Origin: an uncultured Anaerolineaceae bacterium
Lineage (GTDB): Bacteria > Chloroflexota > Anaerolineae > Anaerolineales > Anaerolineaceae
Length of the DNA stretch: 64,000 nucleotides
Assembly: GCA_927443345.1 (NCBI GenBank)
Contig: CAKMKJ010000039.1
Location: 2,372-66,371, forward strand
Direction: 5' to 3'
Shown here: piece after piece, positions 27,539-52,700 of the stretch
Position numbering within the stretch: the stretch's first letter is position 1
Layout of the letters: each line of letters begins with the position of its first letter
Program-made: the position numbers and the translations under genes
The notes under the pieces: model-generated
Database searches by the model: none
Told to the model about the DNA's origin: nothing
What the model saw: the letters and a program-made list of their open reading frames with translations, nothing else

Positions 27539-27543
27539 GACTG

Positions 27544-29569: not shown

Positions 29570-30733
29570 ATGCAATATCGACACTTTGGAAAATTAGATT
29601 GGAAAGTCTCTGCCCTTGGTTTTGGTGCCATGCGCCTGCCGATTCTGGACGGAAAAAGCAGCAACATAGATCAAGCAAAAGCCACTGAAATGATCCGCTA
29701 CGCCATCGACAATGGCGTGAATTATTTTGATACCGCCTATGTTTATCACGACCAAAAAAGTGAGGGTGCCGTTGGACTTGCCTTGAAGGACGGCTACCGT
29801 GAACGCATCAAAATAGCCACCAAACTACCCATATGGTTGGTAAAAACGACCGCAGATTTTAACAGGCTGCTCAACGAACAGCTTGAACGCCTGCAAACGG
29901 ATCATATCGATTTTTATCTGCTACATGCCTTAAACAAGGGTTCATGGCAGAAAATCCTCGATCTAAATTTGATCGAGGAGGCTGAAAAAGCCCTCGCTGA
30001 CGGACGCATCCGCCACCTCGGATTTTCCTTCCACGACAAACTTGACACCTTCAAGCAGATCGTGGATGGCTATGACAAATGGACCTTCTGTCAGATTCAA
30101 TACAACTTCATGGATACAGAATTCCAGGCGGGCAAAGAAGGCTTGCAGTACGCAGCCGCCAAAGGCCTTGCAGTTGTGATCATGGAACCCCTGCGCGGCG
30201 GAAAACTGGCCGCGGATATTCCTGCCGCCCGCCCATTATGGGAATCAGCAGCCATTCAACGCAAACCCGCTGACTGGGCATTGCAGTGGCTTTGGAATCA
30301 ACCTGAAGTGGCTGTCGTGTTGAGCGGTATGAGCACCCTGGATCAATTGAAAGAAAACGTAGAATCTGCTGCCGTTTCAAGTATTGGCTTACTTTCAGCC
30401 CAGGAATTGGAACTGGTTGAAAAGGTCAACAAAGAATTGACCGCCCGCAGTCCGATCCCTTGCACGGCCTGCGAATACTGCCTGCCCTGCCCACATGGCG
30501 TCAACATCCCACGCAATTTTGAATCATACAATAATGCGGCCATGTACAACGATGTAAACGACAGCCGCATGGATTACAAAATGTGGATTTCTGATCCAGA
30601 GAAGGCGTCAGAGTGCATCCAATGCGACGAATGCCTCGATAAATGCCCACAGCAGATTGCCATCAGCACCTGGATGCCCGTGATTGACAGCGTCTTGGGT
30701 CAGGGTCAGCCCTTTGTCGAAAAAGTAGCCTGA
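29570..30733 (+). CDS. Aldo/keto reductase fused to a C-terminal 2x[4Fe-4S]-type Cys cluster domain
   Basis: 387 aa with an AKR N-terminal fold (GFGAMRLP, DTAYVYH, YLLH). The C-terminus has CTACEYCLPCP and CIQCDECLDKCP. A strong SD (AGGAGG) is present. Confidence 0.8.
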   Translation: MQYRHFGKLDWKVSALGFGAMRLPILDGKSSNIDQAKATEMIRYAIDNGVNYFDTAYVYHDQKSEGAVGLALKDGYRERIKIATKLPIWLVKTTADFNRLLNEQLERLQTDHIDFYLLHALNKGSWQKILDLNLIEEAEKALADGRIRHLGFSFHDKLDTFKQIVDGYDKWTFCQIQYNFMDTEFQAGKEGLQYAAAKGLAVVIMEPLRGGKLAADIPAARPLWESAAIQRKPADWALQWLWNQPEVAVVLSGMSTLDQLKENVESAAVSSIGLLSAQELELVEKVNKELTARSPIPCTACEYCLPCPHGVNIPRNFESYNNAAMYNDVNDSRMDYKMWISDPEKASECIQCDECLDKCPQQIAISTWMPVIDSVLGQGQPFVEKVA

Positions 30734-31780: not shown

Positions 31781-33274
31781 TTAACCCTTGATTTCCGTCG
31801 ATCCCATCAAAAAGCGATCCACTTCGCGGGCTGCGCCGCGCCCTTCGCGGATGGCCCAGACCACCAGACTCTGGCCTCTGCGCATGTCACCAGCCGAGAA
31901 CACGCCGGGGATGCTGGTGCCGTAATGTTCGCCATCCGCCAACACATTGGAGCGTGCATCACGCGCCACGCCCAACTGTTCAAGCATTTGATCTTCGGGT
32001 CCCAAGAAGCCCATTGCCAAGAAGACTTCCTGCACCTGCCACACCTTCTTGGTGCCCGGAATTTCTTTAGGCGTCATGCGTCCGTTGGCGTCTCTGACCC
32101 ATTCCACCTGAACGGTGTGAGCTTCTTTGACATTGCCATTTTCATCACCCACAAAGCGTTTGGTGGTGATACTGAATTCTCGCGGATCATGCCCATAAAA
32201 CGCCATGGCCTCTTCCTGCCCGTAATCCACTTTTAGCACTTTTGGCCACTCCGGCCACGGATTGTCCGTCTGGCGCGCATGCGGAGGTTCCGGCAAAATT
32301 TCAAATTGGGTCACGCTGCGGCAGCCGTGCCTCAGCGAGGTGCCAATGCAATCGGTGCCTGTATCGCCGCCGCCGATCACCAGCACATCCTTGTTGCGTG
32401 CAGAAATGGTGACCGCATCTGCCTCGCGGTTCAAGCCGCCCAGCAGGTTGCGCGTGTTGGCGTGCAAAAAGTCCATGGCAAAGTGGATGCCATTGAGTTC
32501 GCGGCCTTCAACCTGCAGATCTCGGGGTTTGGTTGCGCCGCCGCACAAGACCACGGCGTCGTAATCTTTCACCAGCATGTCGGCAGGCATGTCTTTGCCC
32601 ACTTCAGTTTTAGTAACAAATACAATACCTTCATCTGCCAGCAGGTTCACCCGGCGCTCGACCACACTTTTATCCAGCTTCATGTTGGGGATGCCGTACA
32701 TCAACAATCCGCCGATGCGGTCAGCCCGTTCGAAGACGGTTACGCAGTGTCCGGCGTGGTTGAGCAAGTCAGCACAGGCCAACCCAGCAGGGCCGGAGCC
32801 CACCACCGCCACCGTCTTACCCGTCCGTTTAAGCGGCGGTTGGGGATGGATCCAGCCTTCTTCAAATCCTTTTTCAATGATGGCGTGTTCAATGGATTTA
32901 ATAGCCACAGGTGAAGTGACCAGCCCGGCTGTGCAAGAACCTTCGCACGGCGCGGGGCAGACTCTTCCCGTGAATTCGGGGAAGTTGTTGGTTTTCATCA
33001 GCCGTTCGAGCGCCTGCTTCCACAACCCGCGGTAGACCAGTTCGTTCCACTCGGGGATCAGGTTGTGAATGGGGCATCCAGATGCCATGCCGTTGATCAT
33101 GCTGCCGGTGTGACAGAAGGGGGTGCCGCAATCCATGCAGCGTGCGGATTGCCGGGTGAGTGCTTCTTCGGGGAAGGGTTGGTGAAATTCCTTCCAATGC
33201 AAAATACGTTCCTGAGGTGGAAAATCCGTCTGGTTCTCGCGACTGTAATCCATGAATCCGGTTGGTTTTGCCAT
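31781..33274 (-). CDS. gltD: Glutamate synthase (NADPH) small subunit
   Basis: 497 aa with an N-terminal Fe-S Cys pattern ([18 protein letters not shown]) and two dinucleotide folds ([21 protein letters not shown]). Confidence 0.92.
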
Positions 33275-33283
33275 GACTGCCTC

Positions 33284-36200
33284 TTAATTCCCGCTTACGC
33301 GCGAGAGTTCTTTGCTGTTCAGTTCAAACGCGGCTTTGACTGCCTCGTCTCCGCTCAAGCCAGCGGCTTTCACTTCTTCAAACGCTTTCAACATGCGCTG
33401 ATAATCTTGCGGAATAACCTTCACAAACATGGTTATGAAATGCATCCAGTCTTTTAAGATGCGCCCAGCCAGCGGACTGCCGGTCAAGGTTTGGTGCTTT
33501 TCAATCATAGATTTAACATCATTGATCTCAAATACATCCTGCAGCGGTTCGAGGTTGACCATTTCAAGGTTGCAGCGCGATTTGAAAGCGCCATCCCAAT
33601 CGATCACGTAGGCAATGCCGCCAGACATGCCTGCCGCGAAGTTGCGGCCGGTCTTGCCCAGAATGACCACGCTGCCGCCGGTCATATATTCACAGCCGTG
33701 ATCGCCCACACCTTCCACTACGGCTTTGGCACCGCTGTTTCGCACGCAGAAACGCTCACCGGCCAGACCACTGATGAAAATTTCACCTGAAGTCGCGCCG
33801 TAAAAAGCCACGTTGCCAATAATAATGTTCTCATCCGGTGCAAAAGGCGACCCCTTGGGCGGATAGACGATAATCCTGCCGCCGGAGAGCCCCTTGCCGA
33901 TGTAGTCGTTGGAATCCCCTTCAAGCTCCATAGTCACGCCGCGCGGAATGAAGGCGCCAAAGCTCAAGCCTGCCGAGCCCAGGCAGTGGATGTGAACTGT
34001 ATCATCAGGCAATCCTTCCAGACCATAACGCCGCGTCACGGCGCTGCCGACCTGCGAACCGATCACGCGATGCACGTTGCGCACGGCGATATCCACGGCA
34101 ACACGCTCACCGCGTTCGATGGCTGGTGTACATTTTTCGAGCAACACCTTTTGATCAAGCGATTTCTGCAAGTTATGCTGCTGCGGGGTGGTATAACGCA
34201 GCCCTACGGATGCATCCACTTCAGGGCGGTAAAGCAAGGCTGAAAGATCTATGCCGCTGGCTTTCCAGTGGTCCACGGCTTGTTTGGCTTCAAGTTTGTC
34301 GGTGCGCCCGATCATCTCATCAATGGTGCGGAAGCCGAGGATCGACATCCACTCACGCATTTCTTGCGCGATGAAATACATAAAGTTAACTACGTAAGCC
34401 GGGTCGCCCGCGTAATTCTTGCGTAGTTCAGGGTTCTGGGTGGCGATGCCTGTCGGACAGGTATCTTGATGGCAGACGCGCATCATCACGCAACCCAGCG
34501 TCACCAATGGTGCCGTGGCAAAGCCAAATTCTTCGGCCCCAAGCAGGGCGGCCACAATCACATCGCGGCCGGTTTTGAGCTGACCATCCGTTTCAACAGA
34601 AATACGGCTGCGCAGGTTGTTGAGCACCAGGGTTTGGTGGGTCTCCGCCAAACCGAGTTCCCAGGGCAGGCCGGCATGTTTGATGCTGGTCTGTGGTGAG
34701 GCGCCAGTGCCGCCGTCGTGTCCGCTGATTAAGACCACATCCGCGCGCGCTTTGGCCACTCCTGCAGCCACTGTACCCACGCCAACTTCAGACACCAGTT
34801 TGACGTTGATGCGCGCCTCGGGGTTGACGTTCTTCAAGTCGTTGATCAACTGCGCCAAATCTTCAATCGAGTAAATATCATGATGCGGCGGAGGCGAGAT
34901 CAAACCCACCCCCGGCGTGGAATGTCTGGTCTTTGCAATTTCAGGATAAACTTTGCGCCCGGGGAGCTGCCCTCCCTCGCCGGGTTTTGCGCCTTGAGCC
35001 ATCTTGATTTGCAGTTCGCGCGCATTCACCAGGTAATAACTGGTTACGCCAAAACGAGCGGAGGCCACCTGTTTGATGGCGCTGTTGCGAGAATCGCCAT
35101 TGGCGTCTATCTCATAGCGGGCGGGATCTTCGCCGCCCTCGCCAGTGTTGCTCTTGCCGCCGATGCGGTTCATAGCGATGGCCAGCGCTTCGTGAGCTTC
35201 TTTGCTAATCGAGCCGTAAGACATGGCGCCGGTCTTGAAGCGTTTGACAATGGCTTCCACCGGTTCCACTTCATCCAATGGGATGGGCGTCTCGGCCAAC
35301 TTGAAATCGAGCAGACCACGCAGGGTGGTGAGTTGAGTAGATTGATCATTGACCAAAGCCGAATATTTCTTGAATAAGGCATAATCATTATTGCGAGTGG
35401 CCTGCTGTAAATAATAAATGGATTCCGGGTTGAAAAGATGGTGTTCACCGTCTTCTCGCCATTGATATTTGCCTCCGGCATCCAGGGGTTCCAAATCACC
35501 AGGCCGCTTGGGGAATGCCTGCTCATGGCGCATGACCGCTTCACGGGCGATGACCTCAATGCCTGCGCCGCCAATGCGTGAGGGTGTACCGTTGAAATAG
35601 CGCTCCACAAATTCCTGATTCAGGCCGACGGCTTCATAAATTTGCGCACCGCAGTAGCTCTGAATGGTCGAAATACCCATCTTGGAGCACACCTTAATAA
35701 TGCCCTTGACCACGGCTTTGCGGTACTTTTGTGAGGCTGTACGGTAATCCATGTCCGTCAAAAATCCCTGGTCGATCATATCGCGGATGGTGTCAAAAGC
35801 CAGATAGGGATTGATGGCCACTGCGCCGTAGCCCACCAGTGTGGCAAAATGATGCACTTCACGCGGCTCGGCAGACTCCACCACCAGGCCAATGTGAGTG
35901 CGGGTTCCCTTGCCAATAAGATGATGGTGCAGCCCCGCCACCGCCAGCAGCACGGGGATGGCCGCATGTTCAGCGTCCACACCGCGGTCAGACAGAATCA
36001 GAATGTTGGCTTCGTCGTTGGCGATGATCTCATCCGCGCGGGCAAACAACCTCTCCAAACCCGCTTCAAGCCCTGGCCCTCCCTCTGCCGGGTTGAACAA
36101 AATCGGAATGGTCATGGTGTGGAAGTGCAGTCGGTTGAGGTGGCGCAGTTTCTCAAGCTTTTCATTCGTCAGAATTGGGTTTTTGAGTTTGATCTGTCGG

Positions 36201-37924
36201 CAGTTTTCAGGCCGCGGTTCCAGCAGGTTCTGCTCCGAGCCGATCATGATCTCGGTGGCAGTCACAATCTCTTCGCGATTGGCGTCGATTGGCGGATTGG
36301 TCACCTGGGCAAATAATTGTTTGAAATAATCAAACAACAGCACCGCTTTGTCAGAAAGCACTGCCAGAGGTGTGTCGTTGCCCATCGAGCCGATGGGTTC
36401 CACGCCATTCTTGGCCATCGGTCCGATGATGACGCGTAAATCTTCATAAGTGTAACCAAAGGCGCGCTGACGTTTGAGCACATCCTGACTGCGTTCGTAA
36501 CCTTCCTTTTTGCGCTCCACTTCGAGGTTAACAGGGTCAGGCAGGTCTTCAAGGTTGATCAAAAATTCATTCAACCACTTTCGGTAAGGTCTGGCAATTG
36601 AGATGTTGTGTTTGATCTCTTCATCGCTAACAATGCGTCCTTCTTCGGTGTCGACCCACAGCATACGTCCGGGTTCGAGACGGCCTTTTTTGATCACATT
36701 TTCAGCGGGCACATCCAGCACACCCACTTCAGAAGCAAGGATTACGCGGTCATCGCTGGTGACGTAATAACGTGAAGGCCTCAATCCGTTGCGGTCAAGA
36801 CAGGCGCCGATGCCAACGCCGTCGGTGAAGACCATAGAGGCGGGTCCGTCCCAGGGTTCCATCAGCGAACTGTGATACTCATAGAAGGCTTTCTTCTCTT
36901 CGCTCATGCTCTCGTGCTTTGACCACGGTTCAGGAATCATCATCATCATGGCTTCAGGCAGGGTTCTGCCCGCCAGCACCAGCAATTCAAGCACATTGTC
37001 GAAAATGCCAGAGTCCGACCCATCAGGGTTGATCACGGGCAGCACCTTTTGCAGGTCATTGCCAAAGCGGTCAGAATGGAATTTGGTCTGCTGTGAATTA
37101 AGCCAGTTGACATTGCCGCGCAGTGTATTGATCTCGCCGTTGTGTGCCAGCATGCGGTTGGGATGCGCCCGATCCCATGACGGGAAGGTGTTGGTTGAAA
37201 AACGAGAATGCACCATCACCATGGCGGTTTCAATGTCAGGGTCTGAAAGATCAGGGAAGTACGCCTCAACCTGTTTGGAGGTTAACATCCCCTTGTAGAC
37301 CAGGGTTTTGTAAGACATGCTGCAAACATAAAACTGGTCGCCGCCGGCCATCTCTGAGTAGCGGATGGTGTGTTCGGCACGTTTGCGGATGACATAAAGT
37401 TTACGTTCAAAAGTCATGCGGTCTTTAATAGTCTTGTTGCGCTCCACAAAAAGCTGTCGGATCACTGGCTGGGCGGCTCTGGCAGTGGGGCCAAGTGTGC
37501 GGTCATCCGTGGGGACGGTGCGCCAACCCAAAACGTGCTGCCCCTCTTCTTCACAGATCGCTTCAACGATACCTTCGAACTGATGACGCAGCGCTTCATC
37601 CTGCGGAAGAAACAACATGCCTACGCCAAAATAGCGTTCTCCCGGAAGGCTGAATCCCAACCTTGCGCTTTCGCGTTGGAAGAATTTGTGCGGCACCTGA
37701 ATCAAAATGCCAGCGCCGTCACCTGTATCCGTTTCGGAGCCAGTAGCACCGCGATGGGCTAAATTATCGAGAATGGTCAGACCCTGACCAATGATTTCGT
37801 GTGAGACATTCCCCTTAATATTCACCACAAACCCTGTACCGCAGGCGTCATGTTCAAACCGGGGATCGTAAAGCCCTTGTTTCTTGGGAGCGGTCAATTG
37901 GGGAAGTTCGCGTTCATTCATCAT
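33284..37924 (-). CDS. gltB: Glutamate synthase large subunit
   Basis: 1546 aa. It has the N-terminal amidotransferase Cys (HDACGTGFV), FMN and 3Fe-4S domains, and a GXGXG C-terminal domain. It lies 9 nt upstream of gltD. Confidence 0.95.
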
Positions 37925-38686: not shown

Positions 38687-38938
38687 TTAATTTGAAACTG
38701 CTACATCGATGGATTGAGTCATTCCGTTTAAAATAGATTCGAGCGACATTGTATGTACGCATCGATCATGCGTGATGAAGAATTCGCAGTCGCATTGCCA
38801 TTTTCCTTCTGTGTATGTTACTTCGTGTGAATTATTATCACCCTTCACGGTCACAGAGAACGTATGAAATTCAAAACGATCTCTTTCTTGCGCATAACGT
38901 TTTGCTTTTTCAATTTTGCCGATCATGCTGTAATCCAT
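38687..38938 (-). CDS. Small SWIM-type zinc-finger protein
   Basis: It has the CxCx9CxH signature (CDCEFFITHDRCVH). I moved the start to ATG 38938, with AAGGAG 11 nt upstream. The track start at 38989 is a GTG inside a strong hairpin. Confidence 0.55.
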   Translation of the reverse strand: MDYSMIGKIEKAKRYAQERDRFEFHTFSVTVKGDNNSHEVTYTEGKWQCDCEFFITHDRCVHTMSLESILNGMTQSIDVAVSN

Positions 38939-38975
38939 GTGATGTGGTTCTCCTTTGTTTGGTAAGGAAGATGTT

Positions 38976-39009
38976 AAAACAAAAGGCACGCGGAAATAAC
39001 GCGTGCCTT
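38976..39009 (-). terminator. Intrinsic-terminator-like hairpin in the leader of the SWIM gene
   Basis: On the minus strand, AAGGCACGCG-7 nt-CGCGTGCCTT (10-bp stem) is followed by TTTTGTTTT. It lies about 40 nt upstream of ATG 38938 and downstream of a candidate minus-strand promoter. Confidence 0.45.
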
Positions 39010-39220: not shown

Positions 39221-39934
39221 ATGTCACCAGAAAAAATTCTCATCGTGGATATTGATTCAAAATCTATTTCGCTTTTGCGCCAGGTTTTGTCGTCAGCCGG
39301 GTTTGAAGTGATCAGCGCCAACAAACCAGACCGGGCATTGCAGTTGGTGACCGAAGAAATTCCCATCCTGGTCATCACCGAAGCCAGGCTGGATGGTACC
39401 CTGGACGGTTTTGGTCTGCTTCACGATATACGCGAAATTTCCAATATTCCTTTGATTATATTGTCTGAAAGACCCAACTCTGACGATGAACTGCGTGCGC
39501 TTGAAAACGGTGCGGATGATTACCTCCCCAAGCCCTTTGATTCGCGCATCCTCCTGGCACGCGTGAAATCCATCCTCCGCCGCAGCAAGAATACACCGGC
39601 CGCACCAGAGATCATCCAGTGCGGTTCACTCACCATCAACCAGGTTTCACGCCAGGTCAGCGTGGATGAGGTGGCTGTATACCTCACTGAAACCGAGTAC
39701 AACCTGCTGCTCGAACTTGCCAAACATCCAGATCAGGTCATGCTGCACGAACAGCTTCTGCGTGAAGTCTGGGGACCCGAATATCGTCACGAACTCGATT
39801 ATCTTCGTTCATACGTTCACATTCTGCGTAAGAAACTTGAAAAAACACCTTCTCAACCTGTCTTGATTGTCAGCCTTTCGGGCATTGGCTACAAGCTGGT
39901 TTCAAATCCTTCAACCAAAACCAAAGGCAAATAA
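39221..39934 (+). CDS. OmpR/KdpE-like response regulator lacking the phospho-acceptor Asp (Glu at that position)
   Basis: 237 aa. In the receiver domain, beta3 reads PILVITEARLDG where PDLxxLDxxLP is expected, so there is no Asp at the end of beta3. The conserved Ser (ILSER) and Lys (PKPF) are present. The winged-helix C-terminus is LRSYVHILRKKL...SGIGYKL. Confidence 0.8.
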   Translation: MSPEKILIVDIDSKSISLLRQVLSSAGFEVISANKPDRALQLVTEEIPILVITEARLDGTLDGFGLLHDIREISNIPLIILSERPNSDDELRALENGADDYLPKPFDSRILLARVKSILRRSKNTPAAPEIIQCGSLTINQVSRQVSVDEVAVYLTETEYNLLLELAKHPDQVMLHEQLLREVWGPEYRHELDYLRSYVHILRKKLEKTPSQPVLIVSLSGIGYKLVSNPSTKTKGK

Positions 39935-39937
39935 GCC

Positions 39938-41227
39938 ATGGATAGCGACGGCTCCTTTAACCTCTTTGAAATGGCACAAAAGCAGTTTGACCGTTGTGCA
40001 GACTTGCTCGATCTTGAGCATCCTGTTCGCGAGTTCCTGCGGCTGCCCATGCGCGAAACACAGTTCAGCCTGCCCATCAAACTGGATACTGGAGAGTCAA
40101 AGGTATTACGCGGTTTTCACGTGCAATTCAACGACAGCCGCGGACCGGGCAAAGGCGGTGTGCGTTTTCACCCTGCCCAAACCCTCGACACCATCCGCGC
40201 CCTGGGCATGTGGATGACCTGGGAAACCGCCATTGTCAACCTGCCCCTGGGCGGCAGCGCCAGCGGTGTGGCTTGCGACCCGCACAGCCTTAGCCCATTT
40301 GAAATGGAACGCATCTGCCGCGGATTTGTGCGTAAGGTCGCCCATCAATCCGGCCCCGATTGGGATGTACTCGGCCCTGACATAATGACCGGCCCTCAGC
40401 ACATGCTGTGGATGCTGGATGAATATGAAACCATCGTCGGCCATAAAAGCCCAGGTTTCGTCACCGGCAAGCCTCTCCATCATGCAGGGTCGCAAGGACG
40501 CAAAGAAGCCCCGGGTTACGGGGTGATGATTGCCGTGCGTGAAGCACTCAAAGACATGGGTATTGCGGTTGAAAAGACCAGCGCCAGCATTCAAGGCTTC
40601 GGCCTGGTGGGCATGCACGCAGCGCAGCTTTATCACCAGATGGGCGGCACCATTCAGTGCGTGGCCTGCTGGAACCAAACCGATCGCACGACTTACGCTT
40701 TTCGCAAAAAGGAAGGGATTGATTATGACCAGCTCGTTTCAATCACTGACCGATTCGGCGAGATTGATAAACTCAAAGCCCTGTCACTCGGCATTGAGTG
40801 CCTGCCCGGCGACGCCTGGCTTCAGCAGGACGTAGACATTCTCGTACCAGCCGCACTCGAGAACCAGATCCGCGCTGATAACGTTAACCTGATCAGCCCC
40901 AAGGTAAAGATCATTGCCGAGGCCGCCAACGGCCCCACCAACCCGGTGGTGGACCCCGAATTGACCAAACGCGGCATCCTCATCATCCCCGATATCCTCG
41001 CCAATTCTGGAGGCGTTGTTTGCAGCTACTTCGAACAGGTGCAGAGCAACATGAACTATTTTTGGAGCAAGGATGAAGTCTTAAGCAAGCTGGATTCACT
41101 GATGACCTCGGCTTACATTGACGTCTCAACCTTTGCCAAAAAGAACAACACCACTACCAGAGATGCAGTCTACATGCTCGCTGTGGATCGCGTAGCGCGC
41201 GCCTGCCTCGATCGCGGTCTGATCTAG
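39938..41227 (+). CDS. Glu/Leu/Phe/Val dehydrogenase-family paralogue lacking the catalytic lysine (probable pseudoenzyme)
   Basis: 429 aa, starting 3 nt after the regulator stop. GPGKGGVRFHP, GFGLVG and ANSGGV are conserved. WMTWETA replaces WMTWKTA, and GGSASG replaces GGxKGG. Confidence 0.8.
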   Translation: MDSDGSFNLFEMAQKQFDRCADLLDLEHPVREFLRLPMRETQFSLPIKLDTGESKVLRGFHVQFNDSRGPGKGGVRFHPAQTLDTIRALGMWMTWETAIVNLPLGGSASGVACDPHSLSPFEMERICRGFVRKVAHQSGPDWDVLGPDIMTGPQHMLWMLDEYETIVGHKSPGFVTGKPLHHAGSQGRKEAPGYGVMIAVREALKDMGIAVEKTSASIQGFGLVGMHAAQLYHQMGGTIQCVACWNQTDRTTYAFRKKEGIDYDQLVSITDRFGEIDKLKALSLGIECLPGDAWLQQDVDILVPAALENQIRADNVNLISPKVKIIAEAANGPTNPVVDPELTKRGILIIPDILANSGGVVCSYFEQVQSNMNYFWSKDEVLSKLDSLMTSAYIDVSTFAKKNNTTTRDAVYMLAVDRVARACLDRGLI

Positions 41228-41243: not shown

Positions 41244-42971
41244 ATGATAAAGATTGCCGAGCATTTTCAATTATTATCCATGCGCCGCGTCTCCGAGTTG
41301 GAACGTATGGCCGTCGGCGATGGTCGAGAAGAGCTGGGCGGTAAAGCCCAGGGCTTGCTCTCCGTACATCAAACCCTGATCGAACTCGACCAATCTTCCT
41401 TCCCTGAGATCAAACTGGATATTCCCAAACTGACTGTACTGGGCACCAGTATTTTTGAAGCCTTCTTGAAGCGCAACGCGTTGGAAGATATCGCGCACTC
41501 CGGTCTTTCTGACGCGCGTATTGCCAATGCTTTTCAACGTGCAGATATGCCCTTTGAAGTACTTGGTAAATTGCGGGCACATTCAGACGCATGGAGGACC
41601 CCCCTGGCCGTCCGTTCCTCGGGGTTGCTTGAAGATCAGACTCACCGTCCCTTTGCCGGTGTCTATCTCACCAAAATGATCCCGAACAACCAACCAGACC
41701 CTGACACACGTTTTGCTAAATTGGTCGAGGCGGTCAAGTTCGTTTGGGCTTCAACTTTCTTCAAAATTGCACGAGATTACTGCCAGGCAACCGGTCTGGA
41801 TATCTGCCAGGAAAAAATGGCCGTCATTTTACAGGAAGTCATCGGCGGCCGCCATCACGATCGCTTTTACCCTGAGCTTTCTGGTGTTGCCCGTTCTTAC
41901 AACTTTTATCCGCTCAAGCCAGCCAAACCTGAAGACGGAGTGGTTAATCTGGCGCTGGGATTGGGCAAAACCATCGTAGACGGCGGACGCTGCTGGATCT
42001 ATTCACCAGCGTACCCCGAAATGCCACCGCCTTACGACTCAACCGACGAGCTGCTCAAAGAAACCCAGACCGATTTCTGGATGATTAACATGGGAGAACC
42101 GCCCGAGTTTAACCCCATCAAAGAAACCGAGTTTTTGCAGATCGAAAACCTGATGACCGCCGACAAAGACGGCACCCTCGCCCACCTGGCATCTACATAC
42201 GATCCAAAGTCTGAAAGAATGATGATCGGCACTGGCTCGAAGGGTATTCGCGCATTGACCTTTTCGCCCCTGCTGGTGATAAAGGTTATTCCCGTTAATG
42301 CGTTGATCAAGCGAATGTTGGCAAGCTGCGAAGCCAAACTCGGCTGCCCCGTGGAAGTTGAATTTGCCATGACCTTTGATCCGCCTCGCTTCGGTTTTCT
42401 GCAAGTACGCCCCATGGTAGTGCCCGAAGGCAACCTTGAAATCTCGGATGACGAAATGCAGAACCCCAAAGCCCTGGCCTCTTCTGAAGTGGTGCTGGGC
42501 AACGGCGTGGATGACGAGATCACCGACATTGTTTATGTTATTCCGGAATTTTTTGAACTGAAGAACACCCGTCTGATGGCTGAGGAACTTGAAGCGCACA
42601 ACCGCAGGCTGCTGGATGAAAACCGCAAATACCTTTTGATTGTCTTTGGCCGCCTGGGTACAGAGGATTCCTGGTTGGGTATCCCCGTTACCTGGGGGCA
42701 GATTTGCGGCGCCAGCGTGATCATTGAAGCTACCCAACAAAACGTCAAAGTGGAATTAAGCCAGGGGTCGCATTACTTCCACAACATCATCAACCTGGGC
42801 GTCAAACACTTTTCGATGCCATTCACCAGCCCCTATCGCGTGGATTGGGATTGGCTTTTGCAGCAGCCCGTTGAAAATGCCATGCACTTCACCCGCCACA
42901 CCAGGCTGACGGAACCCCTGCACATTAAGGTTGATGGCCGCCACGGCCGCGGCACCATCCACCACTCATAG
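41244..42971 (+). CDS. PEP/pyruvate-binding (PPDK_N-type ATP-grasp) domain protein without phosphohistidine swivel domain
   Basis: 575 aa, starting 16 nt after the GDH-like stop. GGKAQGL and LAVRSSGLLEDQTHRPFAGVY match the nucleotide-binding domain of PEP synthase/PPDK. There is no GGxTSHAAI-like motif. The C-terminal ~170 aa are unassigned. Confidence 0.7.
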   Translation: MIKIAEHFQLLSMRRVSELERMAVGDGREELGGKAQGLLSVHQTLIELDQSSFPEIKLDIPKLTVLGTSIFEAFLKRNALEDIAHSGLSDARIANAFQRADMPFEVLGKLRAHSDAWRTPLAVRSSGLLEDQTHRPFAGVYLTKMIPNNQPDPDTRFAKLVEAVKFVWASTFFKIARDYCQATGLDICQEKMAVILQEVIGGRHHDRFYPELSGVARSYNFYPLKPAKPEDGVVNLALGLGKTIVDGGRCWIYSPAYPEMPPPYDSTDELLKETQTDFWMINMGEPPEFNPIKETEFLQIENLMTADKDGTLAHLASTYDPKSERMMIGTGSKGIRALTFSPLLVIKVIPVNALIKRMLASCEAKLGCPVEVEFAMTFDPPRFGFLQVRPMVVPEGNLEISDDEMQNPKALASSEVVLGNGVDDEITDIVYVIPEFFELKNTRLMAEELEAHNRRLLDENRKYLLIVFGRLGTEDSWLGIPVTWGQICGASVIIEATQQNVKVELSQGSHYFHNIINLGVKHFSMPFTSPYRVDWDWLLQQPVENAMHFTRHTRLTEPLHIKVDGRHGRGTIHHS

Positions 42972-43006
42972 AACCGTAGGGGCGGGTCCGTGACCCGCCT
43001 GGTTTC
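42971..43006. repeat. Degenerate copy 3 of the GTAGGGGCGG palindrome family
   Basis: GAACC GTAGGGGCGGGTC CGT GACCCGCC TGGTTTC. The 8-bp core stem is GGCGGGTC/GACCCGCC. It lies directly after the stop of the ATG-grasp gene (the PEP-utiliser ATP-grasp gene). Confidence 0.6.
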
Positions 43007-43134: not shown

Positions 43135-44490
43135 ATGTCACTCATTCAAGATGTCATTTCACGTGTTCATGAGAAAGAAACCGGCCAGCCAGAATTTTTG
43201 CAAGCCGTTCAAGAAGTGCTCACTTCGTTGGAACCTACTGCGATAAAACACCCCGATTTTGTGAAGGCCAAGATTTATGACCGCATCGTTATTCCAGATC
43301 GCGCCATTCTCTTTCGTGTGCCCTGGGTAGATGATAGCGGCGAAGTTCAGATCAACCGGGGATTTCGCGTCCAGTTTAATAATGCCATCGGACCTTATAA
43401 AGGCGGCTTACGCTTCCATAACTCTGTGAACCTGGGAATCATCAAATTTCTCGGCTTCGAACAGATTTTTAAGAACTCCCTTACCACGCTACCCATGGGC
43501 GGTGCCAAGGGTGGTGCAGATTTTGACCCCAAGGGTAAGACAGACAACGAAGTCATGCGCTTTTGCCAGGCTTTCATGCGCGAACTTTATCGTCACATCG
43601 GCCCCAACACAGACGTCCCCGCCGGGGATATCGGCGTAGGCGGGCGTGAAATTGGCTTTCTTTATGGCTATTACCTCAAGATCGTCAACGCCAACAATAG
43701 TGTGCTCACCGGCAAGGGTCTTGAATACGGCGGAAGTTTGATCCGCCCCGAAGCGACCGGCTACGGCGCAGTTTATTTCGCCGCGGAAATGCTAGCCACC
43801 CGCGGTCAGCAGATCGACTCAAAATCTGCTGCAGTCAGCGGTTCAGGCAATGTAGCCCAATACACGGTTGAAAAACTCAACCAACTTGGCGCTAAAACCA
43901 TCACCCTGTCAGACTCAAACGGCACGATCGTGGATGAGGCTGGTATTGATACCGATAAACTTGAGTTTGTTTTCGAACTCAAGAACCACCGCCGCGGACG
44001 CATAAGCGAATACGCCGATAAATACAAAGTGCCTTACTATGCTGATAAAACCGTATGGGAAGTGATAAAGGAACAAAACTTAAAGGTTGACCTGGCTTTC
44101 CCCTCTGCGCATGAAAACGAAATCCACAAGGCTGAAGCTGAAGCCATGGTTAAAAATGGCTGCTATTGTATCTCTGAAGGTGCCAACATGCCCTCAGATC
44201 TTGAGGCTGTGCAGGTCTTCCTCGACAATCACGTACTTTACGGACCTGGAAAAGCTGCTAATGCTGGCGGTGTGGCCGTCAGCGGACTCGAAATGTCGCA
44301 AAATGCCATGCGCATGAGCTGGTCTCGCGAAGAGGTAGACCAAAAGTTGCAAGTCATTATGAAAAATATCCACGCTTCAACTCTTGAAGCGTCTGAAGAA
44401 TACGGCTGCAAGGGCAATTACGTGGTAGGCGCGAACATAGCCGGCTTTCTCAAGGTCGCCAAATCCATGTTGGCTTATGGTATCGTATAG
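43135..44490 (+). CDS. gdhA: NADP-type glutamate dehydrogenase (E. coli GdhA-like, canonical motifs)
   Basis: The start is set at ATG 43135, with GGGAGG upstream. GPYKGGLRFH, FKNSL, GGAKGG and DVPAGDIGVGGRE are all present. Confidence 0.92.
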   Translation: MSLIQDVISRVHEKETGQPEFLQAVQEVLTSLEPTAIKHPDFVKAKIYDRIVIPDRAILFRVPWVDDSGEVQINRGFRVQFNNAIGPYKGGLRFHNSVNLGIIKFLGFEQIFKNSLTTLPMGGAKGGADFDPKGKTDNEVMRFCQAFMRELYRHIGPNTDVPAGDIGVGGREIGFLYGYYLKIVNANNSVLTGKGLEYGGSLIRPEATGYGAVYFAAEMLATRGQQIDSKSAAVSGSGNVAQYTVEKLNQLGAKTITLSDSNGTIVDEAGIDTDKLEFVFELKNHRRGRISEYADKYKVPYYADKTVWEVIKEQNLKVDLAFPSAHENEIHKAEAEAMVKNGCYCISEGANMPSDLEAVQVFLDNHVLYGPGKAANAGGVAVSGLEMSQNAMRMSWSREEVDQKLQVIMKNIHASTLEASEEYGCKGNYVVGANIAGFLKVAKSMLAYGIV

Positions 44491-44611: not shown

Positions 44612-45202
44612 CTATGTTTTAGATTCTTTAATCTGCTCCAGCTTTAACAATATTTTATCCATTTCTTCAAAGGCCCCTGGTATCACACATCGATTTCGAA
44701 TTATTTTTCTCGGTTGGAAATCATTTTCAACAAAATCCATTGCCTGACTGCGATCTTCTTGAAAGCAGTAGACAGGGTTTATACCAAAAACCACAAGACT
44801 TCCATCACATCTTTTTTTGATTTTGTCTACATGCAACAGTCGATATTCGTAGAAATGTGTAAAACCATAATCAAACTCGTAGCCTACCCAAAGCCGCCTG
44901 AAAAAAACAACATGATCAGGTTTGATTAAAAGGTAGCTTTGCTTTAAAAGAGATCGCTGGACAAAAAAAATAATAATCGGGACTGATTTTAACAATAGAG
45001 CATTTATTAATAACATGAGCAAAAAATCCACCAGCAAGGAACCAACACTCTGACTCACTATGCGGCTATTGGCAATGATCTTTTCAAACAAGCGGAAAAG
45101 TAAAATTCCATCTAGCAAGAGAGAAGGAGATAAAGAAATCCACAACCATAAAGGGGGTTTCTTAAGAAAAGCCCGATGATCAAGTAAGAGTTTTTTTGAC
45201 AT
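44612..45202 (-). CDS. Hypothetical membrane protein
   Basis: 196 aa with two or three hydrophobic segments. GC is very low (hand-counted lines are about 32-37 %). I recognise no family. Confidence 0.4.
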   Translation of the reverse strand: MSKKLLLDHRAFLKKPPLWLWISLSPSLLLDGILLFRLFEKIIANSRIVSQSVGSLLVDFLLMLLINALLLKSVPIIIFFVQRSLLKQSYLLIKPDHVVFFRRLWVGYEFDYGFTHFYEYRLLHVDKIKKRCDGSLVVFGINPVYCFQEDRSQAMDFVENDFQPRKIIRNRCVIPGAFEEMDKILLKLEQIKESKT

Positions 45203-45217
45203 CCAATTAATTATCCA

Positions 45218-46618
45218 TCATTTTATTATTGCTTTTTGAGATTTCACAAACGCTATCACCGTCCTGCTGATATCTTCTTCGGTCGTAGCCCACGAACATA
45301 CACTCACCCTGATCACAGGCGTGTTACACCATTTGCCGCTGCCACACCAGCACTCCCCGGACTGCTGAAGATTTCTCAATGTGGAGGCTGTCTCATCAGG
45401 TGTACCGCAAGTTATCAGCACCTGGTTGAAAACCACATCATTCAAAACCTTGAATCCTTCGGCCTTAATCTCGTCTGCAAATTGGGACGCACGCTCGCAT
45501 AGACCATCTACCAGTTCTTCGACGCCGCGCTTGCCCAACAGTTTGAGCGTCGCCCACAACTCCACCGCACGACCCCGGCGCGACATATCGGGCGAATACA
45601 ACATGCCATCGCGCTGGTCACTATAGAGGATGTAATCTCCGTTGGCCTGCATGGCGGTGATCATGGCGTTGCGGTCTCTGCAGATCACGATGCCGCAATC
45701 ATAGGGCGTGTTGAGCGTTTTGTGCCCATCCACTGACCACGAATCCGCTTTTTCCATGCCTTTGGTCAAATAGCGTTTACTCTCTGAAGCCGCAGCCCAT
45801 AAGCCGAATGCGCCATCCACATGCACCCAGGCACCGGTTTTATTCGCCATATCGCATAATTCATCTATCGGGTCAAACGAACCTGAATTCACATTGCCTG
45901 CCTGCAAGATCAGCAGCGTGTTGCCATCCAGCTGCGGAACCAAATCCACGCGCATGCGGCCCTGGTCATCCACTGGTACGAGTTCCACCCGATCTTTACC
46001 CAGCCCTAAAATCGCCAATGCTTTAAACACCGAGCTGTGAGCTTCAGCGCCAACCACCACGCGAATAGGCGGCGCGCCAAAGAGACCTTTGGTGTTGACA
46101 TCCCAACCGGCACGGCGCAGCAATTCGTAGCGTGCGGCGGCAAAACCCGCCATCGTCGCCATGGATGTTCCACTAACCAGCCCCATAGCGCAATCTTTTG
46201 GCAAGCCGAGCAGTTCGTTCATCCACTGCTCGCACACGGATTCCAACTTGCCCATGATCGGCGAGGTCACATATAACGGCGCAAGTTGGTCCCATACATC
46301 CGTCAGCCACTTCACAGCCATCACCGGCGCGAAGGAGCCGCCCACCACCAGCCCAAAGTATCTGCCACCTGTAGTGGCTACTGTCGCCGGGGACCCGTAG
46401 TCATGCAGCAGCTTCAATATTTTGTTAGGATCATCCGCTTCAATTGGCATGGGTTCGTCGAAGTGCTTCAGATTTTGCAGCGCCTGCTCATTAGGATAAA
46501 CCTCACGTTCAAAAACACCGCCCAGGTAATCAAAGGCATAATCTTTGGCTTGTTCAAACATCGCTCGATCTTTTGCCAGCTTATTCATTCTGGTCTGAAG
46601 ATTTTTTGATACCGCCAT
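45218..46618 (-). CDS. Pyridoxal-phosphate-dependent decarboxylase (group II fold)
   Basis: 466 aa. VHVDGAFG and the SVDGHKTLNTPYDCG lysine motif are typical of group II amino-acid decarboxylases. The substrate is unknown. Confidence 0.7.
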   Translation of the reverse strand: MAVSKNLQTRMNKLAKDRAMFEQAKDYAFDYLGGVFEREVYPNEQALQNLKHFDEPMPIEADDPNKILKLLHDYGSPATVATTGGRYFGLVVGGSFAPVMAVKWLTDVWDQLAPLYVTSPIMGKLESVCEQWMNELLGLPKDCAMGLVSGTSMATMAGFAAARYELLRRAGWDVNTKGLFGAPPIRVVVGAEAHSSVFKALAILGLGKDRVELVPVDDQGRMRVDLVPQLDGNTLLILQAGNVNSGSFDPIDELCDMANKTGAWVHVDGAFGLWAAASESKRYLTKGMEKADSWSVDGHKTLNTPYDCGIVICRDRNAMITAMQANGDYILYSDQRDGMLYSPDMSRRGRAVELWATLKLLGKRGVEELVDGLCERASQFADEIKAEGFKVLNDVVFNQVLITCGTPDETASTLRNLQQSGECWCGSGKWCNTPVIRVSVCSWATTEEDISRTVIAFVKSQKAIIK

Positions 46619-46641: not shown

Positions 46642-47190
46642 TTACTTTTCGCCATGCATCAACAACCTTGCGTCAGGGTAAATACTCTTGTAAATGCCAA
46701 ATAGTTCATCCACCGCATACCCCAAAGGGATGGAACCGGTTTGCTTATAAGCTTTTTTGTAATGGCAATATTGTTTATGGTTTTGTAGGTCAAACAACAT
46801 CATTTGTCCAACCTCTCCGCCCTGCCACGGAATTTGATATTTTGTTTGCACATAAGCGATGGCTTCCTGTGAAAACGGATTAGTGGAAAGGGCAGCCACA
46901 ACCATATTCGGCAAGGTCATGCGCCAGCCGTGCGGAACATGGAAATCTTTATTAACCACTTCACTAAAGCTTTTCTGCGCAGCAATCAGCGCATCCGACC
47001 GGCTATAAAGATCATTCTCCCAGTCAAGAAATAGATAATAGTTGATGAATTTAATCGGACCAAAGGTAGTCAGTTTTGGAGAAACTGCCTGGATCAATCC
47101 GCGCACACCTGGGATGGTTGCGTCTTGAATGACGGAGTAATTTTTATTTTTTAATTCTTCGGTGAAATGAGTTAACACTTCTTCCATCAT
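46642..47190 (-). CDS. Hypothetical protein
   Basis: The track ORF extends to 47223. ATG 47190 has AAGGTGG 6 nt upstream. I recognise no motif. Confidence 0.45.
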   Translation of the reverse strand: MMEEVLTHFTEELKNKNYSVIQDATIPGVRGLIQAVSPKLTTFGPIKFINYYLFLDWENDLYSRSDALIAAQKSFSEVVNKDFHVPHGWRMTLPNMVVAALSTNPFSQEAIAYVQTKYQIPWQGGEVGQMMLFDLQNHKQYCHYKKAYKQTGSIPLGYAVDELFGIYKSIYPDARLLMHGEK

Positions 47191-47274
47191 TATTTTCCAC
47201 CTTTTAATTTTGTTGTTAACCATCGCGTTTGTGATTTTACTATTAGCATTTACAAAAAAATTTCAGAACTATTA

Positions 47275-50602: not shown

Positions 50603-51979
50603 TTAGTTCTTCAAACTGTGAATTGGCGCGGGGATCTTGCCGCCGAAGGCGATAAACCGCCCCGACTTGCCCACACTGCGCACCGGCGCAATCGTGCTTT
50701 CACCAAACAGGCCGCCAAATGCCACAAACTCGCCGGCTTCTTTGCCCGGCACGGGAATCAACCTCACCGCGGTGGTCTTGCCGTTGATCATACCAATCGC
50801 CATTTCATCAGCGATGATGGCCGATATTGTCGCTGCATCCACCGAGCCGGGGATGGCAATCATATCCAGACCGACCGAACATACGCTGGTCATGGCTTCG
50901 AGCTTTTCAAGACTCAAACTGCCGTCGCGTACGGCATCCGCCAGGTATCGGTCTTCACACACCGGGATGAAAGCACCGCTCAAGCCGCCTACGCTCTGGC
51001 TGGCAAAAGCGCCGCCTTTTTTGACTGCATCATTAAGCATGGCTACAATGGCCGTCGTGCCGGGGGCACCAATGGCATCCATACCCAGAATCTTCATGAT
51101 CTCACCCACGCTGTCACCCACATTGGGGGTCGGCGCCAAAGAAAGATCCACCACCCCAAAGGGGATCTCTAATTCAGCAGCCACACGGCGGCCGATTAAT
51201 TCACCGCAGCGTGTCACGCGAAAGGCAGTCTCCTTTATTTCTTCAGCCAGGTCGTGCAAGCCTAAATTCTCTGCACCGTCATTGGCGATACGTCGCTCAA
51301 GCGCGCGGGCAATCACCCCCGGACCGCTGACGCCCACATTGATTACCACCTCATGCTGATCCAACCCGTGGATGGCGCCAGCCATAAAGGGATTGTCACC
51401 CGGCTGGTTGGTAAAGACCACGAACTTGGCCGCTGCAAAACCGCCGGAATCCGCGCTGCGTTCAGACAGCTCCTTGATCACATGACCCAGCCGTGCCACG
51501 GCATCCATGTTGATGCCGGCGCGCGTGGAACCCACATTGACCGAGGAACAGATTTTTTGGGTGGTGCTCAGCGCCTCAGGGATGGAATTGATCAGTTCGG
51601 TATCGCCTGAGGTAACGCCATTGGCCACATCTGCGGAATAGCCGCCCAGAATATCAATGCCTACCAATGAAGCAGCTTCGTCTAGGGCACGTGCAATCTG
51701 GATGAAACCGTCGCGATCAAACCCTGAGCCAACATGCGCAATCGGAGTCACGGAAATGCGTTTATTGACCACAGGTACGGCATATTCACTGCTGATCTGT
51801 TCGCAAGTTTGCACGAGCTTACCAGCATGGCGGTTGATCTTTTCAATGATCGCCTGACAGGTTTGTTTAGCATCCGCACGATGGCAATCCAGCAGGCTGA
51901 TGCCCATGGTCACAGCGCGCACATCCAGGTTTTCTTTCTGGATCATTTCGACAGTTTTAAGAATATCTTCAGAACGCAT
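50603..51979 (-). CDS. UPF0210 (DUF711, PFL-like) family protein
   Basis: 458 aa. The N-terminus ILKTVEMIQKENLDVRAVTMGISLLDC matches the UPF0210 family. It starts 2 nt after the ACT-protein stop. Confidence 0.75.
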   Translation of the reverse strand: MRSEDILKTVEMIQKENLDVRAVTMGISLLDCHRADAKQTCQAIIEKINRHAGKLVQTCEQISSEYAVPVVNKRISVTPIAHVGSGFDRDGFIQIARALDEAASLVGIDILGGYSADVANGVTSGDTELINSIPEALSTTQKICSSVNVGSTRAGINMDAVARLGHVIKELSERSADSGGFAAAKFVVFTNQPGDNPFMAGAIHGLDQHEVVINVGVSGPGVIARALERRIANDGAENLGLHDLAEEIKETAFRVTRCGELIGRRVAAELEIPFGVVDLSLAPTPNVGDSVGEIMKILGMDAIGAPGTTAIVAMLNDAVKKGGAFASQSVGGLSGAFIPVCEDRYLADAVRDGSLSLEKLEAMTSVCSVGLDMIAIPGSVDAATISAIIADEMAIGMINGKTTAVRLIPVPGKEAGEFVAFGGLFGESTIAPVRSVGKSGRFIAFGGKIPAPIHSLKN

Positions 51980-51981
51980 AA

Positions 51982-52569: not shown

Positions 52570-52700
52570 AACTTTACCTGATGGACCAAGATTTAGTGGG
52601 TTCATTATACCCAATAGCTGTTTTGGAATTGGATTGAAAAAGGCAATGTTTTCATCGACAGTGAAAACATTGCCATAAACCCTTTGATTATCGATTTGTT

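Follow-up and report, generated by a model that had tools for sequence, protein, structure and literature searches.

A lysine-less glutamate dehydrogenase homologue encoded with a dikinase-like partner in an uncultured Anaerolineaceae bacterium: a candidate pseudoenzyme

The 64,000-nucleotide stretch of DNA analysed here (the window; contig CAKMKJ010000039.1, positions 2,372 to 66,371, from an uncultured Anaerolineaceae bacterium) contains at 39938-41227 a gene for a glutamate dehydrogenase-like (GDH-like) protein. This gene stands between those of a response regulator (RR) and an ATP-grasp dikinase-like protein (the partner), and a canonical gdhA follows. The original prediction, made from the nucleotide sequence alone, described the protein as a paralogue of glutamate dehydrogenase (GDH) that retains the fold and has lost two active-site lysines, suggesting a pseudoenzyme or a changed chemistry.

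The GDH-like gene and its active site

The gene and its altered active-site positions are as follows, with GDH residues in Clostridium symbiosum numbering.

39938-41227, forward strand: gene of the putative GDH-like pseudoenzyme, ATG start, 429 aa, short hexameric-GDH type
40223-40225, forward strand: codon of Glu96, at the position of the α-carboxylate lysine K113; a recent, sublineage-specific change
40250-40267, forward strand: degenerate glycine-rich catalytic loop GGSASG (G105-G-S-A108-S-G110), corresponding to GGxK125GG
40259-40261, forward strand: codon of Ala108, at the position of the catalytic lysine K125

The reading frame is intact, and its product has the domain organization of the ELFV dehydrogenase superfamily. 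Pfam ELFV_dehydrog_N (PF02812) covers residues 37-164 (1e-44, 148.9 bits, profile positions 1-128 of 129), and the Rossmann domain ELFV_dehydrog (PF00208) covers residues 184-427 (1e-60, 205.9 bits, profile positions 2-241 of 241). The top PDB matches in HMMER were the Thermotoga maritima GDH (PDB entry 2tmg, 352 bits over residues 8-428) and 1euz (342 bits). The two full-length domains and the 2tmg score assign the protein to the superfamily, in agreement with the intact fold proposed originally. In NCBIfam it scored below all GDH equivalog cut-offs, the best model being GdhA_Arch with 399 bits versus 750.

The alignment with 2tmg is gap-free through the N-terminal half (residues 8-230), which holds the active-site motifs. 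The WMTWKTA of 2tmg reads WMTWETA in the GDH-like protein, with Glu96 opposite the K113 equivalent, and LPFGGGKGGV reads LPLGGSASGV, with Ala108 at K125; residues 97-125 are free of lysine. A MAFFT alignment with the gdhA of the window, in which K89, K113, K125, and D165 align with K72, E96, A108, and D148, gave the same assignment. The proposed retention of K89 and D165 and loss of K113 and K125 are thus confirmed, and the motifs listed in the original prediction as conserved (GPGKGGVRFHP, GFGLVG, VLGPDIMT with the acidic residue D148, and ANSGGV) are all present. R188, N356, and S363 correspond to R205, N373, and S380 and are likewise kept. The dinucleotide motif (G220-F-G-L-V-G225) preserves the GxGxxG glycines and has replaced the asparagine of GFGNVG. 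This asparagine (GFGNVG or GxGNV(G/A)) is present in 100% of the Lys-bearing sister GDHs described below and is variable across the Lys-less clade. Just before D165, the PA of the DVPAPD motif of active GDHs is changed to LG.

K125 is the general-base or water-activating lysine and is essential for GDH catalysis. Measured against a catalytically competent GDH, the protein lacks both this lysine (Ala108) and the α-carboxylate lysine (Glu96), and has the K89, R205, N373, and S380 contacts and the proton-relay aspartate D165. From the missing lysine and the established role of K125, we infer that the GDH-like protein is very probably not a functional GDH. A recent review (PMC13179614) gives the corresponding set for contacts with 2-oxoglutarate, namely K78, Q99, K102, K114, D154, R193, and N346 in Aspergillus niger numbering (offset 11), in which the catalytic lysine of the GGxKGG loop is K114.

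Short hexameric GDHs of known structure, from T. maritima (2tmg/1b26), Pyrococcus/Thermococcus (1gtm/1euz), and Bacillus subtilis (RocG, 3k92), contain the same two full-length Pfam domains and share the equivalents of K89, D165, R205, N373, S380, and GxGxxG. The GDH-like protein differs from them in K125→Ala, K113→Glu, PA→LG, the lost asparagine of GFGNVG, and insertions.

Conservation, selection, and descent of the Lys-less clade

The 120 best database matches are 63-97% identical to the GDH-like protein. Those with a source name come from Anaerolineaceae, Anaerolinea thermolimosa, Levilinea, and Leptolinea, and one from Bacteroidetes. None of the 120 has a lysine in the K125 column, which is serine in 109, methionine in 8, and alanine in 3 (loops GGSSSG, GGSMGG, or GGSASG), whereas 129 of 147 diverse GDH representatives (50% identity level) have lysine there. 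The loss is therefore not a chance substitution. The substrate-contact residues are 94-100% conserved across the same homologues: D165 and N373 in all 120, K89 in 118, R205 and S380 in 117 each, and K113 in 113. The K113E change was found in only 4 of the 120 and at loci L006 and L009, and it is confined to the window's own sublineage. The two lost lysines, treated as one state in the original prediction, thus separate into a clade-wide loss of K125 and a recent loss of K113.

Compared with the L006 copy, which is 95% identical and also carries K113E, the GDH-like gene has a dN/dS of 0.027 (Nei-Gojobori, dS ~1.0), as low as that of the flanking RR (0.033) and partner (0.049) genes. The nearest public relatives are L009 (DAIEPS010000047.1, Anaerolineaceae bacterium isolate clean1174) and P0122 (Chloroflexi bacterium HGW-Chloroflexi-4), with 97% identity in the GDH-like protein and 89% in the partner; by this similarity, the window locus is assigned to an uncultured Anaerolineaceae lineage. 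The GDH-like gene is clearly maintained by selection. It combines the two marks of a pseudoenzyme, loss of an essential residue common to the orthologues and purifying selection.

The absence of two key lysines might also point to a pseudogene that has begun to decay or to an error of sequencing. Against this stand the intact frame, the low dN/dS, the presence of the same lysine losses in the separate assemblies L006, L009, P0001, and P0002, and the loss of lysine in at least 120 clusters, which leave such an explanation with negligible probability. Recent decay unique to this strain, the alternative that the original prediction had kept in view, is refuted by the absence of lysine from all 120 homologues together with the dN/dS, which instead indicates a selected, non-decaying variant.

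A genome scan with one genome per species matched more than 600 stretches, and the best 80 loci among 600 of them were kept; for all 80, open reading frames (ORFs) were called and scored with profiles, and the active-site columns were read. Short GDHs that are 52-62% identical to the GDH-like protein keep the full catalytic set (KKGKGDRNS). Their hosts are Ignavibacteriota, Acidobacteriota, Zixibacteria, Planctomycetota, Calditrichota, Cloacimonadota, Bacteroidota, Caldisericota, Clostridia, Thermoplasmatota, and Methanomassiliicoccales. Two family-specific insertions of the GDH-like protein (residues ~244-260 and ~270-282), CWNQTDRTTYAFRKKEG and ITDRFGEIDKLKA, occur otherwise only in this Lys-bearing clade, which is linked to PPDK_N genes (see below); the patterns common to both are CW(D/N)Q.D...Y.F.K..G and ITD.FG.ID..KA.

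In a neighbour-joining tree, the Lys-less sequences nest within the PPDK_N-linked Lys-bearing clade in the order Bacteroidales (GGATGG), Holophagae (GGSMGG), an Acidobacteria metagenome-assembled genome (GGSAGG), and then Anaerolineae, a topology that is compatible with a single loss followed by transfer and also with several independent losses. Within Anaerolineae, GGSMGG is basal, GGSSSG derived, and GGSASG with K113E at the tip. By this nesting, the GDH-like protein descends from a Lys-bearing GDH clade spread over many phyla.

A comparison of 127 Lys-less with 42 Lys-bearing members revealed nine positions that are conserved in both groups with different residues. Catalytic motifs account for four of them (K125→S, G126→S, and PA→LG of DVPAPD), and the other five are conservative hydrophobic or small swaps (I/L, V/I, A/G, F/I). 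The asparagine of GFGNVA and the arginine and histidine of RVQHN are invariant in the active group and relaxed in the Lys-less one. At no position of this comparison did we find a new conserved lysine, arginine, or histidine. The basal GGSMGG members retain DVPAPD, GFGNVA, and RVQHN, which indicates that the lysine was lost first and further erosion came afterwards. Lysine loss followed by stepwise erosion is what is expected of a pseudoenzyme and not of a re-engineered catalyst.

These comparisons bear directly on the idea of an oxidoreductase that continues to use NAD(P) and can dispense with K125. Such an enzyme could reduce a cyclic imino acid or a pre-formed imine, release 2-iminoglutarate unhydrolysed, use a substrate phosphorylated by the partner, or be supplied with a base by the partner in trans. 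The strong purifying selection agrees with this, as do the retained carboxylate- and hydride-side residues (K89, D165, R205, N373, S380) and GxGxxG, the small Ser/Ala residues at 107-109 that enlarge the pocket near C2, and the tight coupling to an ATP-dependent enzyme, whose family transfers phosphate to carbonyl or hydroxyl oxygens. However, position 125 is itself variable (S, M, or A), the constraints around it are relaxed and not re-fixed (L, M, or T for the asparagine of GFGNVG, variable R61 and H64, and K113 lost here), and no new conserved catalytic residue has appeared. Moreover, the independent or early Lys-less forms differ from each other (SMG, SAG, ATG), as would be expected of loss more than of a new mechanism. 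We consider a changed chemistry fairly unlikely; of the two outcomes offered by the original prediction, the pseudoenzyme is the better supported, also by the canonical gdhA that accompanies nearly every Lys-less copy (see below).

About 13 of the 147 diverse representatives also lack the catalytic lysine, with M, R, C, V, H, F, Q, or A in its place (P0268, P0296, P0300, P0313, P0334, P0349, P0351, P0352, P0358, P0369, P0375, P0380, and P0381), and several of them lack K89 or K113 as well. By these alignments, Lys-less GDH homologues seem to have evolved more than once beyond the Anaerolineae clade.

The partner and the neighbouring genes

The gene that follows encodes the partner and starts 16 nt past the stop of the GDH-like gene.

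41244-42971, forward strand: partner, an ATP-grasp (PPDK_N) dikinase-like protein of 575 aa with a C-terminal domain of ~180 aa (Pfam PPDK_N, 6e-33)

An AlphaFold2 model of the partner (pLDDT 88) had as its best Foldseek matches rifampin phosphotransferase, phosphoenolpyruvate (PEP) synthase, HpeI, and pyruvate phosphate dikinase (PPDK), with E values of 1e-13 to 1e-8. In 121 orthologues from Lys-less lineages, R124, E371, E373, Q387, and R389 are invariant and K34 is at least 90% conserved; from motif matching, we take these to be the equivalents of R92, D321, E323, Q335, R337, and K22 of PPDK. The partner thus has the conserved Lys, Arg, acidic, and Gln-Arg residues of an ATP-grasp domain. 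It shares the PPDK_N match and the GGKA, VRSS, E-x-E-F, and LQxR motifs with PEP synthase, PPDK, rifampin phosphotransferase, HpeI, and PigC/RedH, but differs from this dikinase family in having no detectable PEP-utilizers swivel or TIM-barrel domain. Neither Pfam, the predicted structure, nor Foldseek revealed a PEP/pyruvate-binding TIM barrel in the partner, which ends at residue 575, and its scores fall far below every NCBIfam cut-off.

The C-terminal domain of the partner had no Pfam match at E ≤ 10. It contains an invariant SQGSH510YFHN motif, and the stretch S-Q-G-S-H-[YF]-F corresponds to S-F-G-T-H-F-F in a large paralogue of the partner described below; in the predicted model, G-S-H510 (G-T-H in the large paralogue) is at a helix N terminus. 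For a swivel phospho-histidine domain (PF00391, motif G-G-x-T-S-H), which we considered, this motif is no more than a hint. The C-terminal 181 aa modelled alone (pLDDT 89.5) gave a best PDB match of E 0.026 with a TM score below 0.3, and the alignment with the swivel region of rifampin phosphotransferase reached a non-significant 0.8 bits. A role as phospho-histidine carrier is a conjecture based on the motif.

The association of such partners with GDH is shared by the Lys-bearing clade. Counting only loci with at least 2 kb downstream, a PPDK_N-like neighbour is present at 39 of the 44 Lys-bearing loci (52-62% identity), at all 8 Lys-less loci (as the small partner), and at none of 26 loci of distant GDHs (41-43%). 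Among the 44, the ~580-aa form (S) occurs in 30, and in 27 of these it is the next gene downstream, in the same orientation; a ~1000-aa paralogue (L) with a C-terminal nucleotidyltransferase (NTase) domain occurs in 34; and a ~290-aa metallophosphoesterase in 18. The ~1000-aa protein consists of an N-terminal domain of no known family, PPDK_N, a partner-type C-terminal domain, and the nucleotidyltransferase. In the window lineage, the L protein and the phosphoesterase are gone from the locus. The module of Lys-bearing GDH, ~580-aa PPDK_N-like protein, ~1000-aa protein, and, often, metallophosphoesterase extends across at least 10 bacterial and archaeal phyla (L010-L061; examples are L011 8001-15139 and L004 8001-15168).

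By its conserved ATP-grasp residues, the partner appears to remain competent in the lineages with a dead GDH; regulating the lost GDH activity therefore cannot be all that it does. These patterns suggest either that information passes from the GDH-like protein to the partner or that both act jointly on something else.

A module of this composition could also be a covalent-modification system in which the dikinase-like protein modifies GDH, the dead copy serving as a decoy or as an adaptor that steers the modifier to gdhA. The recurrence of GDH, S, L, and metallophosphoesterase across phyla resembles a writer/eraser logic, and an ATP-dependent histidine phosphorylation of Escherichia coli GDH is cited in PMC13179614. 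However, the window locus has neither the L protein nor the phosphoesterase, and we identified no conserved residue open to modification: the middle serine of GGSSSG is alanine here. We know of no protein-modifying member of the PPDK_N family, and we rate this explanation as very improbable. The GGSSSG loop as a fixed phospho-acceptor was considered separately and discarded, as its middle residue is alanine in the window and methionine in basal members and no serine is universal. A role in anti-phage defence was likewise dropped; PADLOC returned nothing for the GDH-like protein or the partner, and only weak PDC-S09 matches for the NTase of the large paralogue.

The RR gene precedes the GDH-like gene, and its stop lies 4 nt ahead of the GDH-like start.

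39221-39934, forward strand: OmpR/KdpE-type response regulator
L006 7283-7996, L008 7287-7988, and L009 4615-5355: related regulators with glutamate as acceptor residue

An RR gene stands ahead of the GDH-like gene at six loci (the window, L004, L006, L008, L009, and L019), all of them Anaerolineae; it is missing at the A. thermolimosa locus L001 and at the non-Anaerolineae Lys-less loci. In the window RR, the phospho-acceptor aspartate (D52 of KdpE) is replaced by Glu54 (39380-39382), and the acidic pair is reduced to D10-I11, leaving an acidic pocket (D-I-D) that is incomplete. The RRs of L006, L008, and L009 share the glutamate, with an acidic pair of D-I, D-N, or D-H among the four, and no histidine kinase gene is adjacent to the RR at any of these four loci. 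At the basal loci L004 and L019 the RR retains the aspartate and is canonical, and at L004 a GAF-HisKA-HATPase kinase is encoded upstream. The glutamate-bearing RR looks like a receiver that does without aspartate and phosphorylation and that evolved in the lineage that also lost K113. A receiver with a glutamate acceptor and no adjacent kinase needs a non-phosphoryl input, for which the co-translated dead GDH is an obvious candidate, by analogy with RocG and GltC of B. subtilis. RocG, a short-type GDH, passes glutamate status to GltC, the regulator of the glutamate synthase genes, and the cryptic GudB of B. subtilis is grouped with the same trigger-enzyme system.

Divergent from the RR operon lie the glutamate synthase (GOGAT) genes.

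31781-33274, reverse strand: gltD, glutamate synthase
33284-37924, reverse strand: gltB, glutamate synthase

The dead GDH could act as a trigger in the manner of RocG, binding the OmpR-type RR in a glutamate- or 2-oxoglutarate-dependent way and controlling gdhA, gltBD, or both. The close spacing of the two genes, the RR ahead of the GDH-like gene at six Anaerolineae loci, the need of the window-sublineage RR for another input, the divergent gltBD in the window and L006, and the precedent of a short-type GDH controlling a GOGAT activator all point this way. The lack of an RR at L001 and at Lys-less loci outside Anaerolineae and the canonical RRs of L004 and L019, the former with its GAF histidine kinase, speak against it; moreover, gltBD adjacency is not conserved, being found only in the window and L006/L007 and not at L008, L009, L001, or L004, and it is the dikinase-like protein and not the RR whose presence beside the gene is universal. 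The likeness to RocG-GltC lies in a transcription factor gene translationally coupled to the GDH-like gene with gltBD divergent; the difference is that RocG is active and GltC is a LysR-type protein encoded elsewhere, whereas here a dead GDH would engage an OmpR-type RR in a putative interaction. Trigger-type control as the whole explanation seems unlikely to us, and it may be an add-on to the sensor role proposed below rather than an alternative.

Downstream of the partner lies the canonical GDH gene.

43135-44490, forward strand: gdhA, canonical NADP-type, 451 aa, with K89, K113, K125, and D165 intact (C. symbiosum numbers counted from its own Met)

This gdhA passes NCBIfam PRK09414 (721 bits versus a cut-off of 536) and shares 31% identity with the GDH-like protein, the two falling under different NCBIfam models. 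It begins 163 nt downstream of the partner gene, past a GC-rich hairpin and an AT-rich spacer, and probably has its own promoter. The hairpin, GGGGCGGGTCCGTGACCCGCC at 42979-43000, lies right behind the partner stop; a simple terminator scan did not call it, and it may be a terminator or attenuator that sets gdhA apart from the upstream operon. Promoter-like sites in the scan were at shuffled expectation and terminator-like sites at about twice expectation, and we drew no operon evidence from it. A canonical long-type gdhA lies within 8 kb at 7 of 8 Lys-less and 7 of 46 Lys-bearing loci (Fisher p = 1.3e-4, a test that disregards phylogeny). This adjacency is consistent with catalysis having become dispensable through redundancy.

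The neighbouring gdhA also suggests a comparison with Thermus thermophilus, in which GdhA (PDB 3aoe) is the inactive regulatory subunit of a GdhA-GdhB heterohexamer. Both cases present a GDH homologue without GDH activity, which is judged here from residues, beside a catalytic GDH gene. The GDH-like protein and gdhA might accordingly form an allosteric heterohexamer, given that an inactive homologue regulates GDH in T. thermophilus and that gdhA is so often close to the Lys-less gene. Nevertheless, the two proteins belong to different GDH subclasses, with 31% identity and lengths of 429 and 451 aa, which makes mixed hexamers unlikely; a 163-nt gap with a hairpin sets gdhA apart, and its place varies among loci; and the retention of the dikinase-like partner would be left unexplained. 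We regard such a subunit role as quite improbable. The GDH-like protein matches GdhB, the catalytic chain (3aoe_A, 304 bits), better than the regulatory GdhA (3aoe_E, 223 bits) and therefore originated independently of Thermus GdhA. Orthology with the latter is rejected by these scores and by the nesting in the PPDK_N-linked clade. In the present case, furthermore, the catalytic GDH is of another subclass and the partner is a dikinase-like ATP-grasp protein instead of an APRT homologue.

Proposed role, known counterparts, and further genes of the window

The reading we favour, to which we give an even chance, is that the protein is a GDH-derived pseudoenzyme that senses a ligand and works with the dikinase-like partner and, here, probably also with the RR, while gdhA does the chemistry. 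The pseudoenzyme would keep the GDH fold, the residues that hold glutamate or 2-oxoglutarate, and most of the dinucleotide cleft. It would be incapable of oxidative deamination or reductive amination because the general-base/water-activating lysine is gone and, in this strain, the α-carboxylate lysine as well. Its ancestor would have been an active GDH already genetically coupled to an ATP-grasp dikinase-like enzyme; once a canonical gdhA became available next door, catalysis could be lost and the non-catalytic role kept. Ligand-driven opening and closing of the two-domain cleft would then report the status of glutamate and 2-oxoglutarate, possibly also NAD(P)H, to the co-translated partner, through which, as we conjecture, the module exerts its catalytic effect. 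The co-encoded OmpR-type regulator would probably be a second receiver of the signal in Anaerolineae. The outcome would be a tuning of nitrogen assimilation at the level of genes or enzymes, for which the neighbouring gdhA and, in the window, gltBD are candidate targets. The lysine loss, its conservation across the clade, the purifying selection, the retained ligand-contact residues, and the conserved linkage to a partner with intact ATP-grasp residues are observed; ligand binding, physical interaction, which way the signal runs, and what the output is are inferred.

Several observations weigh against this proposal. K113→Glu and the lost asparagine of GFGNVG may weaken the very ligand binding that a sensor needs, and the C-terminal domain of the partner has no recognisable fold relative in Pfam or PDB, so its output role is conjectural. 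The grouping of the non-Anaerolineae Lys-less sequences could be due to long-branch attraction, and the test of gdhA adjacency, as stated, leaves phylogeny out of account. Finally, gltBD adjacency fails as a conserved feature, being missing even at the 97%-identical L009, and we treat it as context only.

A broader alternative starts from the module across phyla. The GDH, the ~580-aa protein, the ~1000-aa NTase protein, and the metallophosphoesterase could form a switch that couples ATP-dependent phosphoryl or nucleotidyl transfer to GDH, and in Anaerolineae its GDH component would have become a dedicated, dead sensor or adaptor subunit; or else the dead GDH could bind the substrate, glutamate or 2-oxoglutarate, for a two-protein dikinase. 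The switch would be a counterpart of the GlnE/GlnD control of glutamine synthetase, and its phyla include Ignavibacteriota, Acidobacteriota, Planctomycetota, Calditrichota, Cloacimonadota, Bacteroidota, Caldisericota, Thermoplasmatota, and Methanomassiliicoccales. We offer this tentatively, as a possibility with some weight.

For the ligand-sensing pseudoenzyme that we favour, a close parallel is ADLP of T. thermophilus, an alanine dehydrogenase (AlaDH) homologue in which the catalytic lysine is replaced clade-wide, and which reportedly keeps dinucleotide binding, senses NAD+, and regulates a neighbouring CoA transferase (bioRxiv 10.1101/2025.10.31.685773). The evolutionary logic is the same as that proposed for the GDH-like protein. 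The two differ in superfamily (AlaDH/PNT versus ELFV) and in partner (CoA transferase versus dikinase-like), and the NAD(H) binding and complex of ADLP are shown experimentally, whereas here they are predicted. Thermus GdhA, ADLP, and RocG/GltC are thus precedents for the kind of system. In our literature search for the GDH/PPDK_N association, its gene module, or a clade of GDHs without the lysine, the Thermus precedents were all that came up, and no paper described the GDH and ATP-grasp dikinase-like module, widespread as it is.

GDH-like proteins of this clade are publicly labelled as glutamate dehydrogenase (A. thermolimosa WP_062195935.1; "glutamate dehydrogenase (NAD(P)+)" at JGI). Anaerolineae abound in anaerobic digesters and sediments, and reconstructions of their metabolism hence count a GDH that, judging by its residues, almost certainly does not catalyse the reaction. 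The natural series from an active GDH with partner through GGSMGG and GGSSSG to GGSASG with K113E could show how a central enzyme turns into a pseudoenzyme, and the module, if regulatory, would add a new layer of control at the carbon-nitrogen node. The proposal is directly testable, as a cultured carrier exists in A. thermolimosa.

The 1.3-kb gltB-RR intergenic region is AT-rich. A search at the Rfam gathering threshold found no structured RNA in it and gave one tRNA elsewhere in the window. The region contains an ORF of ~83-100 aa (38687-38989, reverse strand, in the window; 6747-6998, reverse strand, in L006), whose C-x-C...C-x-H pattern (WQCDCEFFITHDRCVHT) is reminiscent of a SWIM-type zinc finger and which has no Pfam match.

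Further genes of the window form small groups of their own.

44612-45202, 45218-46618, and 46642-47223, reverse strand: a PLP-dependent group II decarboxylase between two ~195-aa ORFs without Pfam or NCBIfam match, a group that comes right after gdhA and runs opposite to it
50603-52614, reverse strand: a DUF711 protein adjoining a two-ACT-domain protein, an uncharacterised pair
26786-29537, forward strand: LarB-like (AIR carboxylase), LarE-like (ATP-pyrophosphatase), and LarC-like (nickel insertion) genes
29570-30733, forward strand: following the Lar trio, an aldo-keto reductase fused to a 4Fe-4S dicluster domain

The decarboxylase possibly acts on glutamate or another amino acid, and the LarB-, LarE-, and LarC-like trio corresponds to a nickel-pincer cofactor biosynthesis set.

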